Origin: a virus
Reading direction: 5' to 3' (one strand)
DNA: 44,520 bases
Virus genome (UHGV): UHGV-0202726
The position numbers and the translations under genes were made by a program. Position 1 is the stretch's first letter; each line of letters begins with the position of its first letter. This document shows, piece by piece, positions 3,348 through 27,686 of the stretch. The notes under the pieces are model-generated. The model was not told where the DNA came from and did not search any database. It saw only the letters and a program-made list of their open reading frames with translations.

Positions 3348-3378
3348 CTTCTGTCTCTCCTCTCGTCTGTGTAAATGA

Positions 3379-5621: not shown

Positions 5622-5792
5622 ATGACGCAGAATGAGGTAGCTGAGCGTATTGGGGTTACTCGTCGTACGCTTAATAACTGGTTAAAGAGTGGGAAGTTCC
5701 CTGATTGTTGTACCCGCATTATGGGCCGCCGGCAGCCAGGTACGTTTGACCCGGAGAAAGTGGAAGCGTGGATTAAGGAGAATGTAAAATGA
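5622..5792 (+). CDS. helix-turn-helix DNA-binding protein (AlpA/excisionase-like fold suggested)
   Basis: ATG at 5622 with GAGGG RBS preferred over track TTG at 5589; MTQNEVAERIGVTRRTLNNWLKSGKFP looks like an HTH. Confidence 0.55.
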   Translation: MTQNEVAERIGVTRRTLNNWLKSGKFPDCCTRIMGRRQPGTFDPEKVEAWIKENVK

Positions 5793-6022
5793 CCGAGTTC
5801 CAGTCCCGGGTATTTACGGCTGTCGTTTCGCTAACACGTAAAAAAGGGTCGTGCAGCGTTATGGACTTGCGTCGTAGTTATTTTAGGTACTATAGTTCCG
5901 CCATTATTGAAGGGTCGTTGAAGGTGCTGGTTAAATCTGGTGTCGTGAAAAATGTTGGTGGGAAATATAGTGCTGTTGCTGAAGTTCGCGGAATGACCGC
6001 TACTTTAGAAGACCTGGAATAA
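5789..6022 (+). CDS. hypothetical protein
   Basis: ATGA overlap with upstream stop; AAGGAG RBS. Confidence 0.5.
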   Translation: MTEFQSRVFTAVVSLTRKKGSCSVMDLRRSYFRYYSSAIIEGSLKVLVKSGVVKNVGGKYSAVAEVRGMTATLEDLE

Positions 6023-6080: not shown

Positions 6081-8348
6081 ATGTCCGATGTAATTTTATC
6101 CTACTCGTGGTCACGCCGCAACGCGCGAGCAGAGAAAAAGGATATAAACGTCAGAACCACACACACGGCAACACTGGACGACCTGAAAGCGTTAATCCAG
6201 CCGCTTGATGCTGTTCGTGATGGGATTAACCCGAAGACAGCGCCCGGCTATATCACCGCCGCGTGTGACTCTACACACAGCACCGTGAAAGACCCGGAAA
6301 CCGGTGACTTTAAGCAAGCGCGTAAAGGCTTTTTCTATCGCTGCGACGCATCTGTAAGCAAATCGTCGCTGGCGTATCTGGACTTCGACAGCGCAACGCC
6401 GGAAGAGTATCAGGAAGCGGTGCGTCTGGTTAAGCGAAGCCGCCGTGCGATGTGCCTCTATACCACGGCATCACATACCGACGAGTCCCCGCGCTTTCGC
6501 GTCGTCATGCCGCTGGCCCGTCCGGTTGAAGTCGGCGACATCATCCGTGTTCGTCATGGGTTGCTTGAGCACTTCTTCAAAGGCATGGGCGCGGACCGCA
6601 GCGGGTTCACTCTGTCGCAGCCGATGTACCTGCCGCCAGTTGGCTCTCATGTTATCTGGTCGCGCCGCAACGACCTGATTGACCCGGACGAATTACTGGA
6701 AGGCATCCCCGCCGTTGACGTTAGCAGCGCATCGGATTACCAGATACCAGAAGAACTGCGCACCGCGTTTACAGATGCGTTCGAAGCACTGGCGTTCGAG
6801 TACGGCGGCATCATGACACCGCGCGGCCTTAAGATGCCAGCTACACCGGAACACGCAGAGAACTACAGCGACCCGACGCCGCGCCCGGATGACTTTCTGC
6901 TGTGTTTCCCGCGAGAGGGGTACGAAGCGCCGAACGTAACCATGATTCACGACACCGACATTACGGCAACCGAAGGCATGTCGCCGAAAGAGGTGTGGAA
7001 ATACGCGTGCGATGCGACTGGTCTGCCGTTCAGTGAAGTAGCCGAGGCAATCGGCTGGGGTGCACGTGAATCTGTTTCATGCAGTCTCGACGACCTGGAA
7101 GACGACGAGGACTCAGAGGAGGACGAGTTACCAGAACCGGTAAAGGCTGATTTCGTCGTCGAAGGGTACATGCCGTCGGATTGTATCTGGGATATCGTCG
7201 GGGAATCTGGCACGTACAAATCGTTTTATACGCTGGGGATGATGTACCTCAGCGCCGCCGGATACCGGTTCGCGGGGGCGGACACCCAGCGTTGCCACCA
7301 TTTCTATATAGACGGTGAGGGCGGCGCGGCCACACGTACACGTATTGATGCGCTCGCGGCTAAATACGGCGTGGAGGGTAAAGATTATGTACATGTCATA
7401 GACATGGGTGAGGTCGGAAAACTTAAAAGCCTGATTAAGTTAATGCGCGAAACTGCTGGCGACGAGCCAATCGGCATGGTTGCGTTCGACACCCTTAACC
7501 AGACGCTGGCCCTGACGATTGATAAGTTCGACGAGAACAGCTCATCAACGGCAATCGGTATGGGTAAAGTTATCGCCATCCTGAAAGAAGTACGTGATGC
7601 GACTAAAGCCGCGGTAGGTGTTGTCCACCACACACCGAAGGGCGGAAAGAAAGCCCGTGGTAGTGGGGCGCTGTACGCTGGCGTCGACGTGGAACTGACA
7701 ATTGAACGCGCTACCGACCGTCAGATAAACGTATATCACTCGAAATTTAAGCACGGGCCACAACAGAAGACAGTTGGCATGGTTCTGGAGTCGGTACAGT
7801 TCCGTGAAGCCCCGCCGCCGAAAGAGTACCGTGCAGTTGAGTTCCTGGGTAGCACAGAGGAATACGGCACAATCGTAAACCTGGACCTGCCTGAGCCACA
7901 CAAGGCGCTTGTGCTGATGCCGTGGGGCTTCGAGCCGTTTAAGACTGACGAGGAGAAAGAGCGGGAAGAAGGACTGACGAAGGAAGGTAAAGAAAACGTA
8001 CGTAAAACCGTAGAGAACGCCGTCAACAGTTCAGAAGCCACGATACTGGCGGCGTTTGAACTGGCGGAAGGAACCTACAACGGCAACGAGGGCATCACGG
8101 TAGCCGCAGCGAATAAGCTCGCACAGTCCGACCCTAACGCAAAGGCGTTTAACTCCAAAGAAGCCATAGAACGCGGGAAGATTAAGAAAATGGTTGAGGC
8201 GGGGTATCTTGTGCCAGGGACCGACGAAAACAATCAGATAATACCAGGCCGTTACAGGCTGAATACCCGGATAACGGATAACAAGATTCCGAAGACACTA
8301 TACGAACCGAATGAAATGCTGGTGGTGACCGAGGATGATTTGGAATAA
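6081..8348 (+). CDS. replication protein, RecA-fold ATPase (putative primase/helicase)
   Basis: 755 aa; Walker A GESGTYKS, Walker B-like MVAFDTLNQ, HHTPKG motif in C-terminal half; GAAGGA RBS; large N-terminal domain of unknown type. Confidence 0.7.
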   Translation: MSDVILSYSWSRRNARAEKKDINVRTTHTATLDDLKALIQPLDAVRDGINPKTAPGYITAACDSTHSTVKDPETGDFKQARKGFFYRCDASVSKSSLAYLDFDSATPEEYQEAVRLVKRSRRAMCLYTTASHTDESPRFRVVMPLARPVEVGDIIRVRHGLLEHFFKGMGADRSGFTLSQPMYLPPVGSHVIWSRRNDLIDPDELLEGIPAVDVSSASDYQIPEELRTAFTDAFEALAFEYGGIMTPRGLKMPATPEHAENYSDPTPRPDDFLLCFPREGYEAPNVTMIHDTDITATEGMSPKEVWKYACDATGLPFSEVAEAIGWGARESVSCSLDDLEDDEDSEEDELPEPVKADFVVEGYMPSDCIWDIVGESGTYKSFYTLGMMYLSAAGYRFAGADTQRCHHFYIDGEGGAATRTRIDALAAKYGVEGKDYVHVIDMGEVGKLKSLIKLMRETAGDEPIGMVAFDTLNQTLALTIDKFDENSSSTAIGMGKVIAILKEVRDATKAAVGVVHHTPKGGKKARGSGALYAGVDVELTIERATDRQINVYHSKFKHGPQQKTVGMVLESVQFREAPPPKEYRAVEFLGSTEEYGTIVNLDLPEPHKALVLMPWGFEPFKTDEEKEREEGLTKEGKENVRKTVENAVNSSEATILAAFELAEGTYNGNEGITVAAANKLAQSDPNAKAFNSKEAIERGKIKKMVEAGYLVPGTDENNQIIPGRYRLNTRITDNKIPKTLYEPNEMLVVTEDDLE

Positions 8349-8350
8349 GT

Positions 8351-8374
8351 AAAAAGAAAGGGGCATTAAGCCCC
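8351..8374 (-). terminator. terminator for the XRE regulator transcript
   Basis: Stem GGGGC/GCCCC with ATTAA loop spanning the stop codon, followed on minus strand by TTTCTTTTT. Confidence 0.5.
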
Positions 8375-8581
8375 TTCACCGAACGCCAGCCACTTGGCGT
8401 CTACTTGTAGCACTTCCGCCAGCTTGAACAGCGTCGCCGGTCGGACGTCCTGAGTTACCCCGAGCGCAAGCTGGTTAATCGCGCCCTGGGAAACGCCAGC
8501 CAGGACCGCCAGACGGCGCTGGGAGATGCCGAGTTCTTTACGGCGTTGTTCTACGCGGATACCTAGTTCAGATGGTTGCAT
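8366..8581 (-). CDS. XRE-family helix-turn-helix transcriptional regulator (Cro/CI-like)
   Basis: 71 aa; LGISQRRLAVLAGVSQGAINQLALG is a typical XRE HTH; AAGGAG RBS; monocistronic with own terminator. Confidence 0.75.
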   Translation of the reverse strand: MQPSELGIRVEQRRKELGISQRRLAVLAGVSQGAINQLALGVTQDVRPATLFKLAEVLQVDAKWLAFGEGA

Positions 8582-8604
8582 GTCATTTACTCCTTAGTCA
8601 GTTG

Positions 8605-8630
8605 ATATGTGAATAGTACCATATTAATTA
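8605..8630 (-). promoter_or_regulatory. operator-like palindrome and probable -10 region of the XRE regulator gene
   Basis: TGTGAATAGTACCATATTAA; TACTAT on minus strand (8618..8613) about 30 nt upstream of ATG 8581; weak -35, AT-rich upstream. Confidence 0.4.
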
Positions 8631-8645
8631 TTTTAGAAAAGCCCA

Positions 8646-8674
8646 TTGACACGTGAATAGTTCGCTATTATAGT
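8646..8674 (+). promoter_or_regulatory. consensus sigma70 promoter
   Basis: TTGACA, 17-nt spacer containing TGAATAGTT, TATAGT. Confidence 0.6.
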
Positions 8675-8704
8675 TAACCCATACCAAACGAGAGGATACA
8701 TAGC

Positions 8705-8884
8705 GTGGATGTTAAAGACTGGTGCGGGAGGTTTAGCAAATGTGACGGTTGCAAACTTCAATCAGAATGCGCCGTAAGGCCAGAAGAGCTTTTTATAGTG
8801 TTCGAAGATGGTAAACCGGTAGACCGCTGGGCCATCAGAACGACAGAAATGATTAAACGAGAACTGGAGAAAGAAAAATGTTAG
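8705..8884 (+). CDS. hypothetical small Cys-rich protein (59 aa)
   Basis: GTG start with GAGAGGA RBS; DWCGRFSKCDGC...SEC cysteine cluster; stop overlaps next start. Confidence 0.3.
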   Translation: MDVKDWCGRFSKCDGCKLQSECAVRPEELFIVFEDGKPVDRWAIRTTEMIKRELEKEKC

Positions 8885-9375
8885 AGAAATTCTTAGTATT
8901 ACTGGAACGTTTCGTAGTTGCACATGAACTTATTGCTGCGAATAGCGCGAAACAAGTTGTCGTTTCCGAAGTAGATGGGTTACCCGCAGAGACTAAAGCC
9001 GACGTAGTTCGTGCCGTTGTAAAAGCCGAAGAAACAAAAGAAATCCCGGTCGAAGGTGAAGACCTCGTAGACACTAAACCGGCAGAAGAAGAGAAGCCAA
9101 AACGCAAGCCGCGTAAAGCTAAAGTAGAGGAACCTACGCCAGAGCCGGAAGAAGAGAAAGAAGAAGTCGATTATCAGTCTCTGCGTGACCAGATTCAGGC
9201 TATCGACGACGCCATTAACGAAGGTCCGAGCGACGCCGCGTGCGACGATTCTGATGAACTACTGGAAGAGTTCACCGGTAAGAAAATGAAGATTGCCGCG
9301 ATTAAAGACGAAGACCTGGCTGAATATCTGGAACGCCTGACGGCAATCAAGAACAAGTATTTCGAAGAAGAATAA
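8878..9375 (+). CDS. hypothetical highly acidic protein
   Basis: ATG with GGAGAAAG RBS; long Glu/Asp/Pro/Lys low-complexity centre and acidic C-terminus. Confidence 0.55.
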   Translation: MLEKFLVLLERFVVAHELIAANSAKQVVVSEVDGLPAETKADVVRAVVKAEETKEIPVEGEDLVDTKPAEEEKPKRKPRKAKVEEPTPEPEEEKEEVDYQSLRDQIQAIDDAINEGPSDAACDDSDELLEEFTGKKMKIAAIKDEDLAEYLERLTAIKNKYFEEE

Positions 9376-9382
9376 CTATCTT

Positions 9383-9402
9383 GCGGCCTTCGGGCCGCTT
9401 TA
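9383..9402 (+). terminator. GC hairpin with UUCG loop, weak terminator or attenuator
   Basis: GCGGCC-TTCG-GGCCGC followed by TTTAAC. Confidence 0.4.
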
Positions 9403-9418
9403 ACTGAGGGTCGGAAAT

Positions 9419-9706
9419 ATGAAATACGAAGATATGAGCGATTTTGAGATTAACTGCTGTGTACACGCAGAGGTTATGCAAATTTCAGGATTGAATTCGT
9501 TTAAGGCCAAAGACTACTGCAACAACCCATCTGATGCATGGCCCATAATAATTGATAATCACATATCAATTGAATGCGTTACGGCTAACCGGCATACGTT
9601 TACATATCGCGCGTACCACTCTGCATCTTTCACCAAAAGTACGCACGAAAACCCCCTACGCGCCGCTATGATTGTCTTTCTGAAAATGCGGGAGAAGGCG
9701 CAATGA
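9419..9706 (+). CDS. hypothetical protein
   Basis: ATG with GAGGG RBS; several Cys/His; no recognisable domain. Confidence 0.5.
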   Translation: MKYEDMSDFEINCCVHAEVMQISGLNSFKAKDYCNNPSDAWPIIIDNHISIECVTANRHTFTYRAYHSASFTKSTHENPLRAAMIVFLKMREKAQ

Positions 9707-9975
9707 TTTACCAACTCTACCGCGCCGTAGACAGGCGAGATAACACAGAGGCGCTATGGTTATTGCGTGCGCCGTCAGAGGCACACCAGATGGAAGAGAT
9801 GGCGTACTTAGGCAAAGTACCGCGGCCTAAAGACATAGGCCGTCATGTGTCGCAGATTAAGCGCACGACTTTCGCCAAACCTGACTTTTATGTCTTTGAG
9901 TCGATGTATGGCTGGGCTATGCACTGCGAGCATAAGACACGGCATTTAATTGACCAGTGGGAGAGCAGGGCATGA
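9703..9975 (+). CDS. hypothetical protein
   Basis: ATGA overlap with upstream stop; GGGAGAAGG RBS. Confidence 0.5.
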   Translation: MIYQLYRAVDRRDNTEALWLLRAPSEAHQMEEMAYLGKVPRPKDIGRHVSQIKRTTFAKPDFYVFESMYGWAMHCEHKTRHLIDQWESRA

Positions 9976-11213
9976 TTCTAAAAGAACGCGGTGGCAATAA
10001 CGATGTACACGCATTACTATCACCGTCAGGCGCTAAAAAGTGGTTAACCTGCCCGGCTTCTCTGGCCTGTGAAAAAGATATTCCTAACACGTCCGGTAAA
10101 GCCGCGGTATTAGGTACGGCTATGCACACCATAGCTGAGGTACATCTCAACGCCTATATCCGCGGCACTGCGCTACCATTAGAGCGTGAAGTCGGTGCTT
10201 ACGTGCTGGACGAGGGTAAAGGCCAGATTAAGGCGCTAATCAGCCCGATGAAATGCGCGGTACTGATTACGGCTGACATGATTGAGCAGGTGCGCAAGTA
10301 CACAGACTACTGCAAAGCTGTTATCGATGTAGCGACTTACGCCAAACTCGAGATGCGTGTCAATCTTACTGAGGTATTGCATCCAGGCTACGAAGGCGTT
10401 GAGACATTCGGAACCGCCGACCTTGTTGCCGTTCAGGAACTGGCGAACACCGACGAGCACATGCTCATTATTGGCGACCTTAAAACTGGACGGCATCGTG
10501 TTGAAGCGAAAGAAAACAAGCAGCTTATGCTTTACGCTCTCGGTGTTTATCGCCGACTCAAGAGACGTTATAACATCACAGTTGTTCGCCTGGTCATCTT
10601 TCAGCCGTACGCGGGCGGTGCGTCGGAGTGGGACATCTCGGTTGAAGGTCTGGAACTGTTCGCTAAGTTTGCACAGAAACGCGCACTGTTAGCTCTTGAC
10701 GCGTATTACCGAGGCAAGAAGAACCTGAAAGCATCTGACTTCAAGCCGTCAGTAGACGGTTGTCAGTGGTGCCGGTTCTCGGAACAGTGTGCCGCGCGTA
10801 CAAAAACCGTTAACGCGGTGCTGGCGGAAGAACTTGAAGACGACTTTGCGCTGGAACTGACACCAGAGCAACTCGTAGCTGAGTATGAGAAGTTGCCATT
10901 GTTGCGCCAGCACATCGACAAGGTCGAGAAAGCGATGTCCGCCGCGTTGCATTCCGGTAAGAAAGTGCCGGGGTACAAGCTGGTTGAAGGTAAGATGGGC
11001 AATCGTGCGTGGAAGGATGCTGAGGCGGTATACGAGAAATACGGCTACAAGCTGACTAAAGACGTGCTCATGTCACCTACCGAAGCGGTTAAAGTCATAC
11101 CGGAGGAGGAGCTAAAAGACTTCATTACCCGTAAGCCTGGCGCACCATGTGTTGCAACGGCGGACGACAAGCGTCCTGAGTGGAATCAGGTAACAGAGGA
11201 GGATTTGGAATGA
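9972..11213 (+). CDS. PD-(D/E)XK nuclease, Cas4/RecB-like with Cys cluster
   Basis: ATG at 9972 (ATGA overlap, GGAGAG RBS) preferred over track GTG 9957; GDLKTG (D-x-K), QLMLYAL (QxxxY), N-terminal C and C-terminal CQWCRFSEQC consistent with a Cas4-type Fe-S cluster. Confidence 0.75.
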   Translation: MILKERGGNNDVHALLSPSGAKKWLTCPASLACEKDIPNTSGKAAVLGTAMHTIAEVHLNAYIRGTALPLEREVGAYVLDEGKGQIKALISPMKCAVLITADMIEQVRKYTDYCKAVIDVATYAKLEMRVNLTEVLHPGYEGVETFGTADLVAVQELANTDEHMLIIGDLKTGRHRVEAKENKQLMLYALGVYRRLKRRYNITVVRLVIFQPYAGGASEWDISVEGLELFAKFAQKRALLALDAYYRGKKNLKASDFKPSVDGCQWCRFSEQCAARTKTVNAVLAEELEDDFALELTPEQLVAEYEKLPLLRQHIDKVEKAMSAALHSGKKVPGYKLVEGKMGNRAWKDAEAVYEKYGYKLTKDVLMSPTEAVKVIPEEELKDFITRKPGAPCVATADDKRPEWNQVTEEDLE

Positions 11214-11387: not shown

Positions 11388-11416
11388 TTGACACCTGAAT
11401 AGTTAGCTATTATAGT
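11388..11416 (+). promoter_or_regulatory. consensus sigma70 promoter
   Basis: TTGACA, 17-nt spacer containing TGAATAGTT, TATAGT. Confidence 0.6.
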
Positions 11417-11472: not shown

Positions 11473-12099
11473 ATGGGACTGAAACTGAATCTGCGTAAAG
11501 TAAACACTGCATGGGTTAACGTATTCGAACGTGAAAAAGACCGTGAAAACGATGATGGCTCAATCACTAAAGGGCAGTACAGCGCGACTATTATCCTGCC
11601 GTCTGACCATGCTCAAATCGACGCGCTATACGACACTGTCTACGCTGTAGTTGAAGAAGCGTTGGGTGCAGCCGCTGCCGAGAAGTGGATGAAGTCCAAC
11701 TACGGCGAAGGTAAGCACATGGATAAATGCGCGATTAAAGACATTGCCGAGCGCGACAATCCGTTTGAAGACTTCCCGGAGGGCTTCTACTTCAAAGCGA
11801 AGGCACAGAAACAGCCGCTGATTGTAACCTCTAAAAAAGGTGAGACTCAGGTAGAACAGGACTTCAATGTAGACGGCGAACAGATTGAAGGCGAACAGGT
11901 TTACAGCGGCTGTGTGGCTAACGTAAGCGTTGAAATCTGGTTCAGCCAGAAATACAAAGTCCTCGGCGTTAACCTGCTGGCAATTAAGTACGTTGGTGAG
12001 GGTAAAGCATTCGGGGGCTCTAAAGTCGCCGCGAGTGTTGATGACCTGGAAGATGACGAAGAAGATGAAGCACCACGCCGCGAGCGTCGTCGCCGCTAA
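11473..12099 (+). CDS. putative single-stranded DNA-binding protein
   Basis: Follows strong promoter; GAGGAA RBS; acidic C-terminal tail DDLEDDEEDEA typical of SSBs; sits between nuclease and polymerase as in phage nuclease/SSB/PolA modules. Confidence 0.5.
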   Translation: MGLKLNLRKVNTAWVNVFEREKDRENDDGSITKGQYSATIILPSDHAQIDALYDTVYAVVEEALGAAAAEKWMKSNYGEGKHMDKCAIKDIAERDNPFEDFPEGFYFKAKAQKQPLIVTSKKGETQVEQDFNVDGEQIEGEQVYSGCVANVSVEIWFSQKYKVLGVNLLAIKYVGEGKAFGGSKVAASVDDLEDDEEDEAPRRERRRR

Positions 12100-14615: not shown

Positions 14616-14933
14616 ATGAGTACGCCTGAGGGGCGCATCCAGAAATACGCAAAAGACCGATTCGAGGCCATTGGCGGCCTCGTTCGTAAACTTTCCTACG
14701 AAGGACGTTCCGGCGCTCCCGACCTGCTGGTAATTCTCCCCAACGGCATCGTCTGGTTCGTCGAGGTTAAGAAAGACGAAAACACGAAGCCAGACCCTCA
14801 CCAGTTACGGGAACACGAGCGGATGCGTAAACGTGGCGCAAATGTTTTTGTAGTTGGTTCGATAAAACAGGTTGACACCCTAGTAGCGGACTATTATAGT
14901 AAGTACATACCCCAACAATATAAGGAATTATAA
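14616..14933 (+). CDS. VRR-NUC domain nuclease
   Basis: PDLLVILPNG...VEVKK...Q..E arrangement typical of VRR-NUC PD-(D/E)XK proteins; GAGGGG RBS. Confidence 0.7.
   Translation: MSTPEGRIQKYAKDRFEAIGGLVRKLSYEGRSGAPDLLVILPNGIVWFVEVKKDENTKPDPHQLREHERMRKRGANVFVVGSIKQVDTLVADYYSKYIPQQYKEL
14872..14900 (+). promoter_or_regulatory. consensus sigma70 promoter inside the 3' end of the VRR-NUC gene
   Basis: TTGACA, 17-nt spacer, TATAGT. Confidence 0.55.
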
Positions 14934-15228: not shown

Positions 15229-15420
15229 ATGAAACACGAATATGACCGCAAACCAGCACGTGACATCGTACCGGGCGACATGATTTTCAACGTTAAGACC
15301 CGTCGTCCTGTTGCCGTTGATACGGTGTACGTCGAGTCGAACGGTAAACTGGTTATCGAAGATGTAACCGGCAATATTACGGCGTTCGGGCGTAAAGAGT
15401 TAGTTCTGGTGTTGAAATGA
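15229..15420 (+). CDS. hypothetical protein
   Basis: ATG with AAGGAA RBS. Confidence 0.5.
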   Translation: MKHEYDRKPARDIVPGDMIFNVKTRRPVAVDTVYVESNGKLVIEDVTGNITAFGRKELVLVLK

Positions 15421-16100
15421 TTGTCTGGTCATTATTTGACGGTTCGGGCCTTATGGCCCAGCCGTGGGCGGAAGCGGGCCATACTTGCTACTGTTTCAAC
15501 TACGACGGCGCTGACCACGGCGACTACGCACTATTGGGTGCAAAGGTTGAACACGAGAACATCCACTATATAAACGCGTGGATTGATAATAAATTCGACT
15601 TCGAAGCCGCGCCGGATATTATTTTTGCGTTCCCTCCTTGCACAGATTTAGCCGTTAGTGGGTCGCGTCATTTCGAGGCTAAGCGCAAGAAGAACCCAAC
15701 GTTTCAGGTAGAGGCCGTGATTACATGCAAAGTGGCAGCGCGTCTGGCTAAAAAGTACAACGTACCTTATATGATTGAGAACCCAGTTAGCGTTCTTTCA
15801 TCTTTATGGCGTAAGCCCGATTATGTATTCGACCCACACGATTACGGCGGCTATCTACCGGAAGACGACACACATCCAATGTTTCCGGATGTTATTCCAG
15901 CGCGAGATGCCTATGTTAAAAAGACGTGCCTGTGGGCGGGCAATGGGTTTGTTATGCCCGACGTTGCCGATGTTGCCGCGGGTAGTGGAGATAATCCGGG
16001 CTGGGCTAAACTGGGCGGCAAGAGCGCCAGAACAAAAACAATCCGCAGCCTCACCCCGCGAGGTTTCGCAAAAGCAGTTTACGAGGCTAATCATGTCTAA
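15417..16100 (+). CDS. DNA cytosine-5 methyltransferase-like protein, short form without obvious target-recognition domain
   Basis: LFDGSGLM (motif I-like), FPPCTDLAVSG (PC catalytic motif IV-like), MIENPVSV (ENV-like motif VI); only 227 aa; ATGA overlap with upstream gene. Confidence 0.55.
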   Translation: MIVWSLFDGSGLMAQPWAEAGHTCYCFNYDGADHGDYALLGAKVEHENIHYINAWIDNKFDFEAAPDIIFAFPPCTDLAVSGSRHFEAKRKKNPTFQVEAVITCKVAARLAKKYNVPYMIENPVSVLSSLWRKPDYVFDPHDYGGYLPEDDTHPMFPDVIPARDAYVKKTCLWAGNGFVMPDVADVAAGSGDNPGWAKLGGKSARTKTIRSLTPRGFAKAVYEANHV

Positions 16101-27659: not shown

Positions 27660-27686
27660 CACCTGTAACTTACTGAGGAAATAATT

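Follow-up and report, generated by a model that had tools for sequence, protein, structure and literature searches.

Two overlapping genes on the plus strand (positions 8705 to 9375) were analysed in UHGV-0202726, a 44,520-nucleotide stretch of DNA (hereafter the window) from a virulent Kagunavirus-like siphophage of Escherichia coli (subfamily Guernseyvirinae). The first gene (ral, 8705-8884), a small Cys-rich open reading frame (ORF), is clearly a homologue of Ral, the anti-restriction protein of phage lambda, and the second (165 amino acids, 8878-9375) encodes a strongly acidic protein that is a core protein of the Guernseyvirinae, of uncharacterised role, and not the product of an accessory gene. 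Considering both genes together, we find it rather probable that a Ral cassette is joined here to an acidic core protein acting as a non-enzymatic early adaptor or decoy. The locus would then be the first transcription unit of a rightward early operon, beginning at a strong promoter of host type and ending at a leaky hairpin terminator, and the promoter is apparently gated by a divergently encoded XRE repressor. The acidic protein, made early and in abundance, would serve the replication-recombination programme as a protein-binding adaptor or decoy, with an N-terminal helix that may grip a very conserved partner, possibly a host protein. The first-pass annotation of this DNA had described a promoter (TTGACA-N17-TATAGT, 8646-8674), a 59-amino-acid Cys-rich ORF and a 165-amino-acid ORF with a Glu/Asp/Pro/Lys centre and an acidic C-terminus, placed beside an XRE regulator gene and ahead of the nuclease, SSB (single-stranded-DNA-binding protein) and polymerase genes, and each of these elements was found in place.

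The small ORF (59 amino acids, GTG start) matched the Pfam family PF11058 (Ral) with 104.9 bits (cut-off 25), residues 2-57 of 59 being covered, and phrog_1055 with an E value of 1.1e-30. Comparison with Ral of lambda, P22 and CUS-3 gave 66% identity and 35 invariant columns, and the identity to Ral of the lambdoid phages (lambda, P22, Sf6, CUS-3, and HK140) was 66-72% along practically the entire protein. Of the five Cys residues, four (C7, C13, C16, and C22, spaced C-X5-C-X2-C-X5-C) are invariant in lambda, P22 and CUS-3 Ral, and the size class (about 60-66 amino acids) and the early promoter are likewise shared with lambda Ral. The fifth residue, C59, is not a family feature and is a product of the gene junction, because its TGT codon spans the ATG of the acidic gene. 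In contrast to lambda ral, which belongs to a temperate lambdoid phage and lies downstream of N, the gene studied here is carried by a virulent Guernseyvirinae phage and is the first after the promoter; its product starts 4 residues later, and the junction reshaped its C-terminal end and added the fifth Cys. The exact amino acid sequence is already present in NCBI as WP_404855289.1 ("antirestriction Ral family protein") and DAV78845.1 ("MAG TPA: antirestriction protein"); it is a member of a known, database-annotated family in an unusual host genome.

Lambda Ral alleviates restriction by type IA enzymes (EcoKI and EcoBI) and, by way of HsdM, promotes de novo modification (PMC12707154, PMC12373910). 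It speeds first-strand methylation at unmodified sites by type IA enzymes, type IB and type IC enzymes being unresponsive to it (PMC12707154), and Ral was recovered as an inhibitor of type I restriction-modification (R-M) in a recent in-trans expression screen (PMC12373910). Judged from its family membership, the ORF of the window presumably has Ral activity, which would consist of faster methylation of fully unmethylated sites; some incoming or replicating genomes would thereby be spared cutting, and their progeny would become modified. Five EcoKI sites and one EcoBI site are present in the window, and such an activity would therefore be relevant to the phage.

The ral gene was found to occupy a variable slot in front of the acidic gene. 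In alignment A3, the ATG of the acidic gene comes straight after the Shine-Dalgarno sequence GAGAGGA in EM1 and phiSD1; in the window, as in GZMU_E2010, the ral insert lies precisely between this GAGAGGA (8690-8696, plus strand, 8 nucleotides 5' of the ral start), which forms the left edge of the slot, and the acidic ATG. An unrelated gene for 53 amino acids lies in the same slot of fFiEco03. In 60 IMG/VR relatives whose XRE gene could be recognised, the slot was empty in 31 and filled in about 21 with at least 10 unrelated inserts (37, 49, 53, 58, 75, 85, and 86 amino acids, plus HNH endonucleases and two larger ORFs); ral was in the slot of none of the 60, and no function was recognised for the inserts other than the HNH endonucleases. 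The small occupants are candidate accessory or counter-defence genes.

Several details of the slot (equivalent to 8697-8877) were observed at individual loci. Small genes fill it in L009, L011, L014, L015, L020, L021, L028, L031, L034, L035, L040, L042, L047, L048, L052, and L071; the occupants include a 49-amino-acid protein beginning MTNNRKAK and a 75-amino-acid Cys-rich protein beginning MNTITG (phrog_32657), which is also present in Bas70. The slot gene Bas75_0049 (L070, 33234-33455) has been annotated antisense to the acidic gene, which looks like a strand mis-annotation, the frame conserved in relatives being the same-strand 75-amino-acid ORF of phrog_32657. A gene for an HNH homing endonuclease precedes the acidic gene within the slot of L022 and L057, and in GZMU_E2010 such a gene (L004, 3727-4221) stands after the acidic gene in place of ninX. 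Because HNH genes are found at these nearby positions in relatives, this part of the early region is a general insertion hotspot.

A Ral homologue was detected in 117 phage records, one of which (GZMU_E2010) is Kagunavirus-like; the others are temperate lambdoid or P22-like phages with 64-72% identity. In a collection of some 15 billion proteins, the Kagunavirus-type Ral cluster had 8 members, and a word-indexed protein search with Ral gave 2 clusters, which carry little information on Ral diversity. Between ral of the window and its sibling copy in L072 (93% protein identity), 21 codon differences were synonymous and 5 non-synonymous, and ral is therefore under purifying selection. The gene looks like one acquired horizontally from temperate phages by a virulent phage, by a capture that was rare and not recent.

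The two ORFs share 7 nucleotides (ATGTTAG), the ral stop codon overlapping codons 2-3 of the acidic gene, whose own Shine-Dalgarno sequence GGAG (8866-8869, plus strand) lies within the 3' end of ral. This overlap suggests translational coupling and could be taken as the sign of a partnership in which Ral and the acidic protein form a two-component anti-restriction unit. Such a partnership is hardly credible, however, since in all other phage records but one the acidic gene occurs alone or behind unrelated cassettes, those other cassettes overlap the start of the acidic gene in the same manner as ral, and lambdoid Ral works without any such partner.

The acidic protein was detected by tblastn in 486 phage records (355 of Salmonella phages and 103 of Escherichia phages, the others from phages of Serratia, Klebsiella, Enterobacter, and others), and the helicase-primase, for comparison, in 358 Salmonella-phage records. 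Homologues numbered 2584 among database proteins, and a full HMMER scan of 1.84 billion representatives (50% clustering) returned 32 clusters only; the family is therefore narrow and restricted to phages. The protein matched phrog_3127 over residues 1-165 (E value 1.5e-67), and alignment A1 together with 62 related loci showed this family to share one layout, an N-terminal helix followed by a linker and a C-terminal domain. Rightward of the XRE gene, the acidic gene comes first among the core genes, with those for nuclease, SSB and PolA beyond it. The XRE gene adjoins it in 60 of the 62 loci, it lies upstream of the nuclease and SSB genes in nearly all loci long enough to tell, and the order XRE / acidic - nuclease - SSB - PolA is kept even in distant relatives whose helicase-primase is on the other strand. 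The name "13.88 kDa late protein" given to homologues in GenBank derives from UniProt Q9T1Z8 of Salmonella phage MB78, a member of the same family with 85% identity over the aligned part, which unlike the present protein has 123 amino acids only and whose name carries no function.

Calculation of charge confirmed the strong acidity expected from the first-pass annotation: the isoelectric point (pI) is 4.45, with 45 Asp and Glu against 24 Lys and Arg residues and a net charge of -21, so that the protein is neither basic nor neutral; all family members have a pI of 4.37-4.86. The charge is distributed as 0 in the N-terminal helix, -10 in the linker (with 8 Pro), and -11 in a three-helix bundle. 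Residues 1-25 (8878-8952) form an amphipathic hydrophobic helix, MLEKFLVLLERFVVAHELIAANSAK, which is nearly invariant (consensus MLxKFLxLLERFVVAHELIAANS in 19 representatives and 62 loci; R11, A15, E17, and A20 invariant across the 19 representatives), and an AlphaFold2 (AF2) model placed this helix at residues 2-23 with a predicted local distance difference test score (pLDDT) of about 80. Residues 26-98 (8953-9171) form a disordered Glu/Asp/Pro/Lys linker (pLDDT about 50; disorder predicted at about 24-98) that contains PVEGEDLVDTKP and EEEKPKRKPRKAK; its sequence and length differ among homologues, and short motifs recur. Residues 99-165 with the stop codon (9172-9375) form an acidic three-helix bundle (helices 99-115, 119-133, and 144-163, pLDDT about 90) that ends in EEE. 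These 67 residues are the sole confident domain of the model, 73 residues being predicted as disordered, and the conserved C-terminal domain (about 65 amino acids) is duplicated in the family members P0131 and P0142. No catalytic or DNA-binding motif was found in the protein.

The first-pass annotation had remarked that early, strongly acidic phage proteins are often DNA mimics or anti-restriction and anti-defence factors; on this view, the acidic protein would block type I R-M or other DNA-binding defences in the manner of T7 Ocr (gene 0.3) or ArdA. It is indeed like these in being strongly negative and expressed very early; acidity is found in all members of its family, and no other core gene stands between its own and the strong early promoter. 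In contrast to Ocr and ArdA, with which no homology was found, it consists of a helix, a disordered linker and a three-helix bundle, is encoded by a core and not an accessory gene, and carries half of its charge in the disordered linker, its folded part being a generic bundle of 67 amino acids. Searches of Pfam, NCBIfam, PADLOC and PDB sequences, with the single sequence and with the profile, gave no match. Structure prediction, named as a check in the first-pass annotation, yielded nothing beyond the generic bundle, without relation to Ocr, Gam, gp5.9 or any PDB entry: Foldseek comparison of the AF2 model with PDB gave nothing at E < 1 and only generic or designed three-helix bundles at E > 1, and comparison with BFVD gave members of its own family only. 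The family profile was also aligned by hhalign with 19 T7 and lambda proteins (Ocr; gp0.4, 1.1, 1.2, 1.6, 2, 2.5, 4, 4.3, 4.5, 4.7, 5.3, 5.5, 5.7, 5.9, and 6.5; lambda Gam, Ea10, and Kil), and all probabilities were 0.5% or lower, that for Ocr being 0.5%.

The relative Bas70 bears most directly on this point. Its acidic protein has 84% identity as a whole and is unchanged (100% identical) at residues 1-28 and 97-165, and the phage itself lacks ral. The efficiency of plating of Bas70 was 1.3e-5 and 5e-6 on EcoKI, 1e-3 on EcoCFT_I, 1.5e-5 on EcoRI, 8e-6 on EcoRV, 1.5e-6 on EcoCFT_II, and 5e-5 on EcoP1 (supplement of PMC11990801), and the BASEL authors described every Kagunavirus isolate of theirs as highly R-M-sensitive (PMC11990801). 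Since Bas70 is restricted about 10^5-fold by EcoKI despite identical folded parts, protection of Ocr strength by the acidic protein is excluded, which leaves room for weak alleviation. An anti-restriction role of the acidic protein is unlikely, and its action as a mimic of the Ocr or ArdA type very improbable. The proposal that the early unit encodes an anti-restriction function was therefore borne out for the small ORF (Ral, by its PF11058 score) and not for the acidic protein, a core gene product whose homologue is carried by the restricted phage Bas70.

The adaptor or decoy role that we prefer for the acidic protein is suggested by the conservation of its helix and by the motifs of its linker. 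In locus L067, the N-terminal 25 residues are 96% identical to those of the window and the rest of the acidic protein did not align, while the helicase-primase is 26%, the nuclease 51%, and the SSB 48% identical. A helix 96% identical beside replication proteins 26-51% identical suggests a partner far more conserved than the phage replication proteins themselves. The linker of the window carries PVEGEDLVDTKP and then EEEKPKRKPRKAK, and that of distant homologues EDDL(A/D)DDE and then KPKRKPR; this layout of an acidic motif followed by a basic cluster is the same as in the SSB tail, which reads ...VDDLEDDEEDEAPRRERRRR (VDDLEDDEEDE-APRRERRRR) at or near the C-terminus (gene at 11473-12099).

Among the 314 ORFs of at least 40 amino acids in the window, three end in an acidic ...DLE, namely orf77 (...TLEDLE, 5789-6022), the helicase-primase (...VTEDDLE, 6081-8348, which also has such a segment in a linker at about residues 325-340), and the nuclease (...VTEEDLE, 9957-11213). 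These acidic tails persist in relatives with proteins only about 26% identical. Their sequences, with that of the SSB, suggest that the four replication-module proteins dock through a common motif on a single hub protein. T7-type SSB and helicase have acidic tails that dock on the polymerase and compete with single-stranded DNA (PMC5686142). The tails and segments of the helicase-primase, nuclease, orf77 and SSB are like the acidic C-terminal tails of T7 gp2.5 and gp4, and the acidic linker motif is similar, whereas the motif here ends in D-L-E and that of T7 in the aromatic D-F. The tails of the helicase-primase, nuclease and SSB probably dock on one hub, and the linker motifs of the acidic protein (acidic E-D-L and basic KPKRKPR) are similar to them; the adaptor or decoy would plug into this network.

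In its place before the genes of the PD-(D/E)XK nuclease and gp2.5-like SSB/annealase, the acidic gene has parallels in lambda gam-bet-exo and T7 5.9-6. Because the gene precedes this nuclease/annealase module, the most serious rival to the adaptor reading is that the protein acts, by inhibition or by hijacking, on a conserved host protein of DNA ends or of the nucleoid; RecBCD, the target of lambda Gam and T7 gp5.9, is the most attractive candidate. With Gam and gp5.9 the acidic protein has in common that it is small, acidic, helical and early and heads a module of nuclease and SSB/annealase; the curated relative Bas75 is without any other annotated RecBCD inhibitor, and a conserved host target would fit the extreme degree to which the helix is conserved in phages of different Enterobacterales. 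The Old system is linked to loss of RecBCD function. Variable sensitivity to Old was reported among Kagunavirus phages by the BASEL authors (PMC11990801), but Bas70 plated on Old with an efficiency of about 1.2 (supplement of PMC11990801). The protein is moreover unlike Gam and gp5.9 in sequence profile and in fold (hhalign probabilities of about 0.1% each, and neither among the Foldseek PDB matches), and its conserved helix is hydrophobic and not DNA-like. With these points on both sides, inhibition of RecBCD or of a similar host protein appears unlikely.

The early promoter (TTGACA-17-TATAGT, 8646-8674, plus strand) is of the sigma-70 type and agrees with the consensus at 11 of 12 positions, and the promoter region is almost unchanged among relatives (alignment A3). 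Three such 11/12 matches with the same hexamers were found in the whole window (at 8646, 11388, and 14872), all on the plus strand, against 0.52 expected on average from first-order Markov shuffles. The spacer of the early promoter contains the palindrome AATAGTTCGCTATT (8656-8669, plus strand). A motif search further gave six copies of the 16-nucleotide operator-like motif TGAATAGTnnnC(T/A)ATT in the window, at 3376, 5154, 8610, 8654 and 11396 on the plus strand and at 27661 on the minus strand. Two of these lie in the divergent intergenic region between the XRE gene and the early unit, the left copy at 8610-8625 and the other within the promoter spacer, and one (11396) lies within the promoter at 11388-11416 ahead of the SSB gene, where the module of promoter plus operator is identical to that at 8646. 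Three of the six copies are thus at or beside the early promoters 8646 and 11388, and after the remaining three comes a second common element, ...G(T/C)GTGCAAG. The third promoter (14872-14900) is situated just past PolA.

The XRE/Cro-like helix-turn-helix (HTH) regulator, a 71-amino-acid protein encoded divergently from the early unit (8366-8581, minus strand; Pfam HTH_3, E value 1.2e-12), is probably the ligand of the TGAATAGTnnnC(T/A)ATT copies, which from their placement would be its operators and define its regulon. The acidic gene stands in the "cro" position opposite the XRE gene and shares an operator region with it, which raises the question of a transcriptional role as an anti-sigma factor, an RNA-polymerase-binding factor or an XRE antagonist that switches early to later expression. 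T7 Gp2 and T4 AsiA are small acidic early proteins that act on transcription, and the curated relative Bas75 has no RNA polymerase of its own. The acidic protein has neither an HTH nor similarity to Gp2, however, and its gene is always coupled to the nuclease-SSB-PolA operon and not to late genes, so that we consider such a role quite improbable.

The unit of ral and the acidic gene is closed by a GC-rich terminator-like or attenuator hairpin (GCGGCC-TTCG-GGCCGC followed by TTTAA; 9383-9403, plus strand, the stem-loop proper at 9383-9398). The region after the acidic gene folds at -17.1 kcal/mol with a z-score of -2.6. The same hairpin is present in nearly all relatives, and distant relatives have other GC-rich hairpins there, some with T-runs. 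A scan for consensus terminators did not call the 9383-9403 hairpin, whose T-run is short, and an Rfam scan of 8200-9800 found no RNA family. The own strong promoter and the conserved closing hairpin suggest high early expression that is attenuated before the downstream enzymes. In an alternative RNA structure (9383-9413; minimum free energy, -17.1 kcal/mol), 9384-9393 pairs with 9404-9413, so that the ninX-like gene would have its Shine-Dalgarno sequence (GAGGG) masked; in this way termination could be linked to the translation of that gene.

Several observations weigh against the combined view of a Ral cassette with an adaptor or decoy protein. On the side of Ral, the ORF is shorter than lambda Ral by 4 N-terminal and 2-3 C-terminal residues, and the protection given by lambda Ral is only partial. 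On the side of the acidic protein, the predicted template-modelling score (pTM) of the AF2 model is only 0.40; the EDL and basic motifs are absent from the shortest family member, P0144, and are perhaps not essential; and composition, short motifs and conservation form the whole basis on which an adaptor mechanism and its partners may be proposed. The name "late protein" of MB78 Q9T1Z8 also clashes with an early role; the basis of this name could not be traced in the accessible literature, and the K1B4 transcriptome paper assigns no temporal class to the acidic gene.

As for the genome setting, the region around the two genes is 89-93% identical in DNA sequence to Escherichia phages of Kagunavirus, including fFiEco03, EM1, and the BASEL phages Bas70, Bas74 and Bas75, and 440 phage records matched this region. 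With its counterpart in the prototype K1G, the helicase-primase shares 98% identity. Kagunavirus-type phages are small virulent siphophages that rely on the host RNA polymerase. The early unit is preceded by the helicase-primase gene and followed by genes for NinX, the PD-(D/E)XK/DUF2800 nuclease, the Enc34/gp2.5-type SSB and PolA. Antisense ORFs at 8633-8761, 8762-8923, 8853-9107 and 9195-9356 were regarded as spurious, being opposite to conserved coding sequence. A 227-amino-acid ORF further downstream (15417-16100, plus strand) gave a sub-threshold match to C-5 cytosine DNA methylase (19.4 bits; cut-off 22) and, if real, would be a second R-M-related function of the phage.

A wider reading, which we put forward as tentative and less likely to be true than false, is that the gap of roughly 30 nucleotides between the Shine-Dalgarno sequence and the acidic gene is a dedicated counter-defence hotspot of the Guernseyvirinae and that, separately, the acidic protein and the E-D-L-E tails form a short-motif docking network. 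If the hotspot is real, Ral would be its only recognisable occupant and at least 10 small cassettes (of 49, 53, 58, 75, 85 amino acids, and others) would be new anti-defence proteins; if the docking network is real, it would be an undescribed organiser of a widespread replication module, with the acidic protein as an adaptor or competitive regulator.

Kagunavirus and Jerseyvirus phages are often candidates for phage therapy and were described by the BASEL authors as highly R-M-sensitive; from the rare lineage with a captured ral one sees how phages of this kind can obtain partial protection against systems of the EcoKI type. The exact exchange slot is useful for finding counter-defence genes and as an insertion site for engineering, and recognition of the acidic protein as a core protein that is not Ocr-like prevents its mis-annotation. 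Overall the locus is of modest interest; its parts that most deserve follow-up are the variable slot and the tail motif that several proteins share, and the acidic protein is a conserved early protein in hundreds of genomes whose partner is worth finding.

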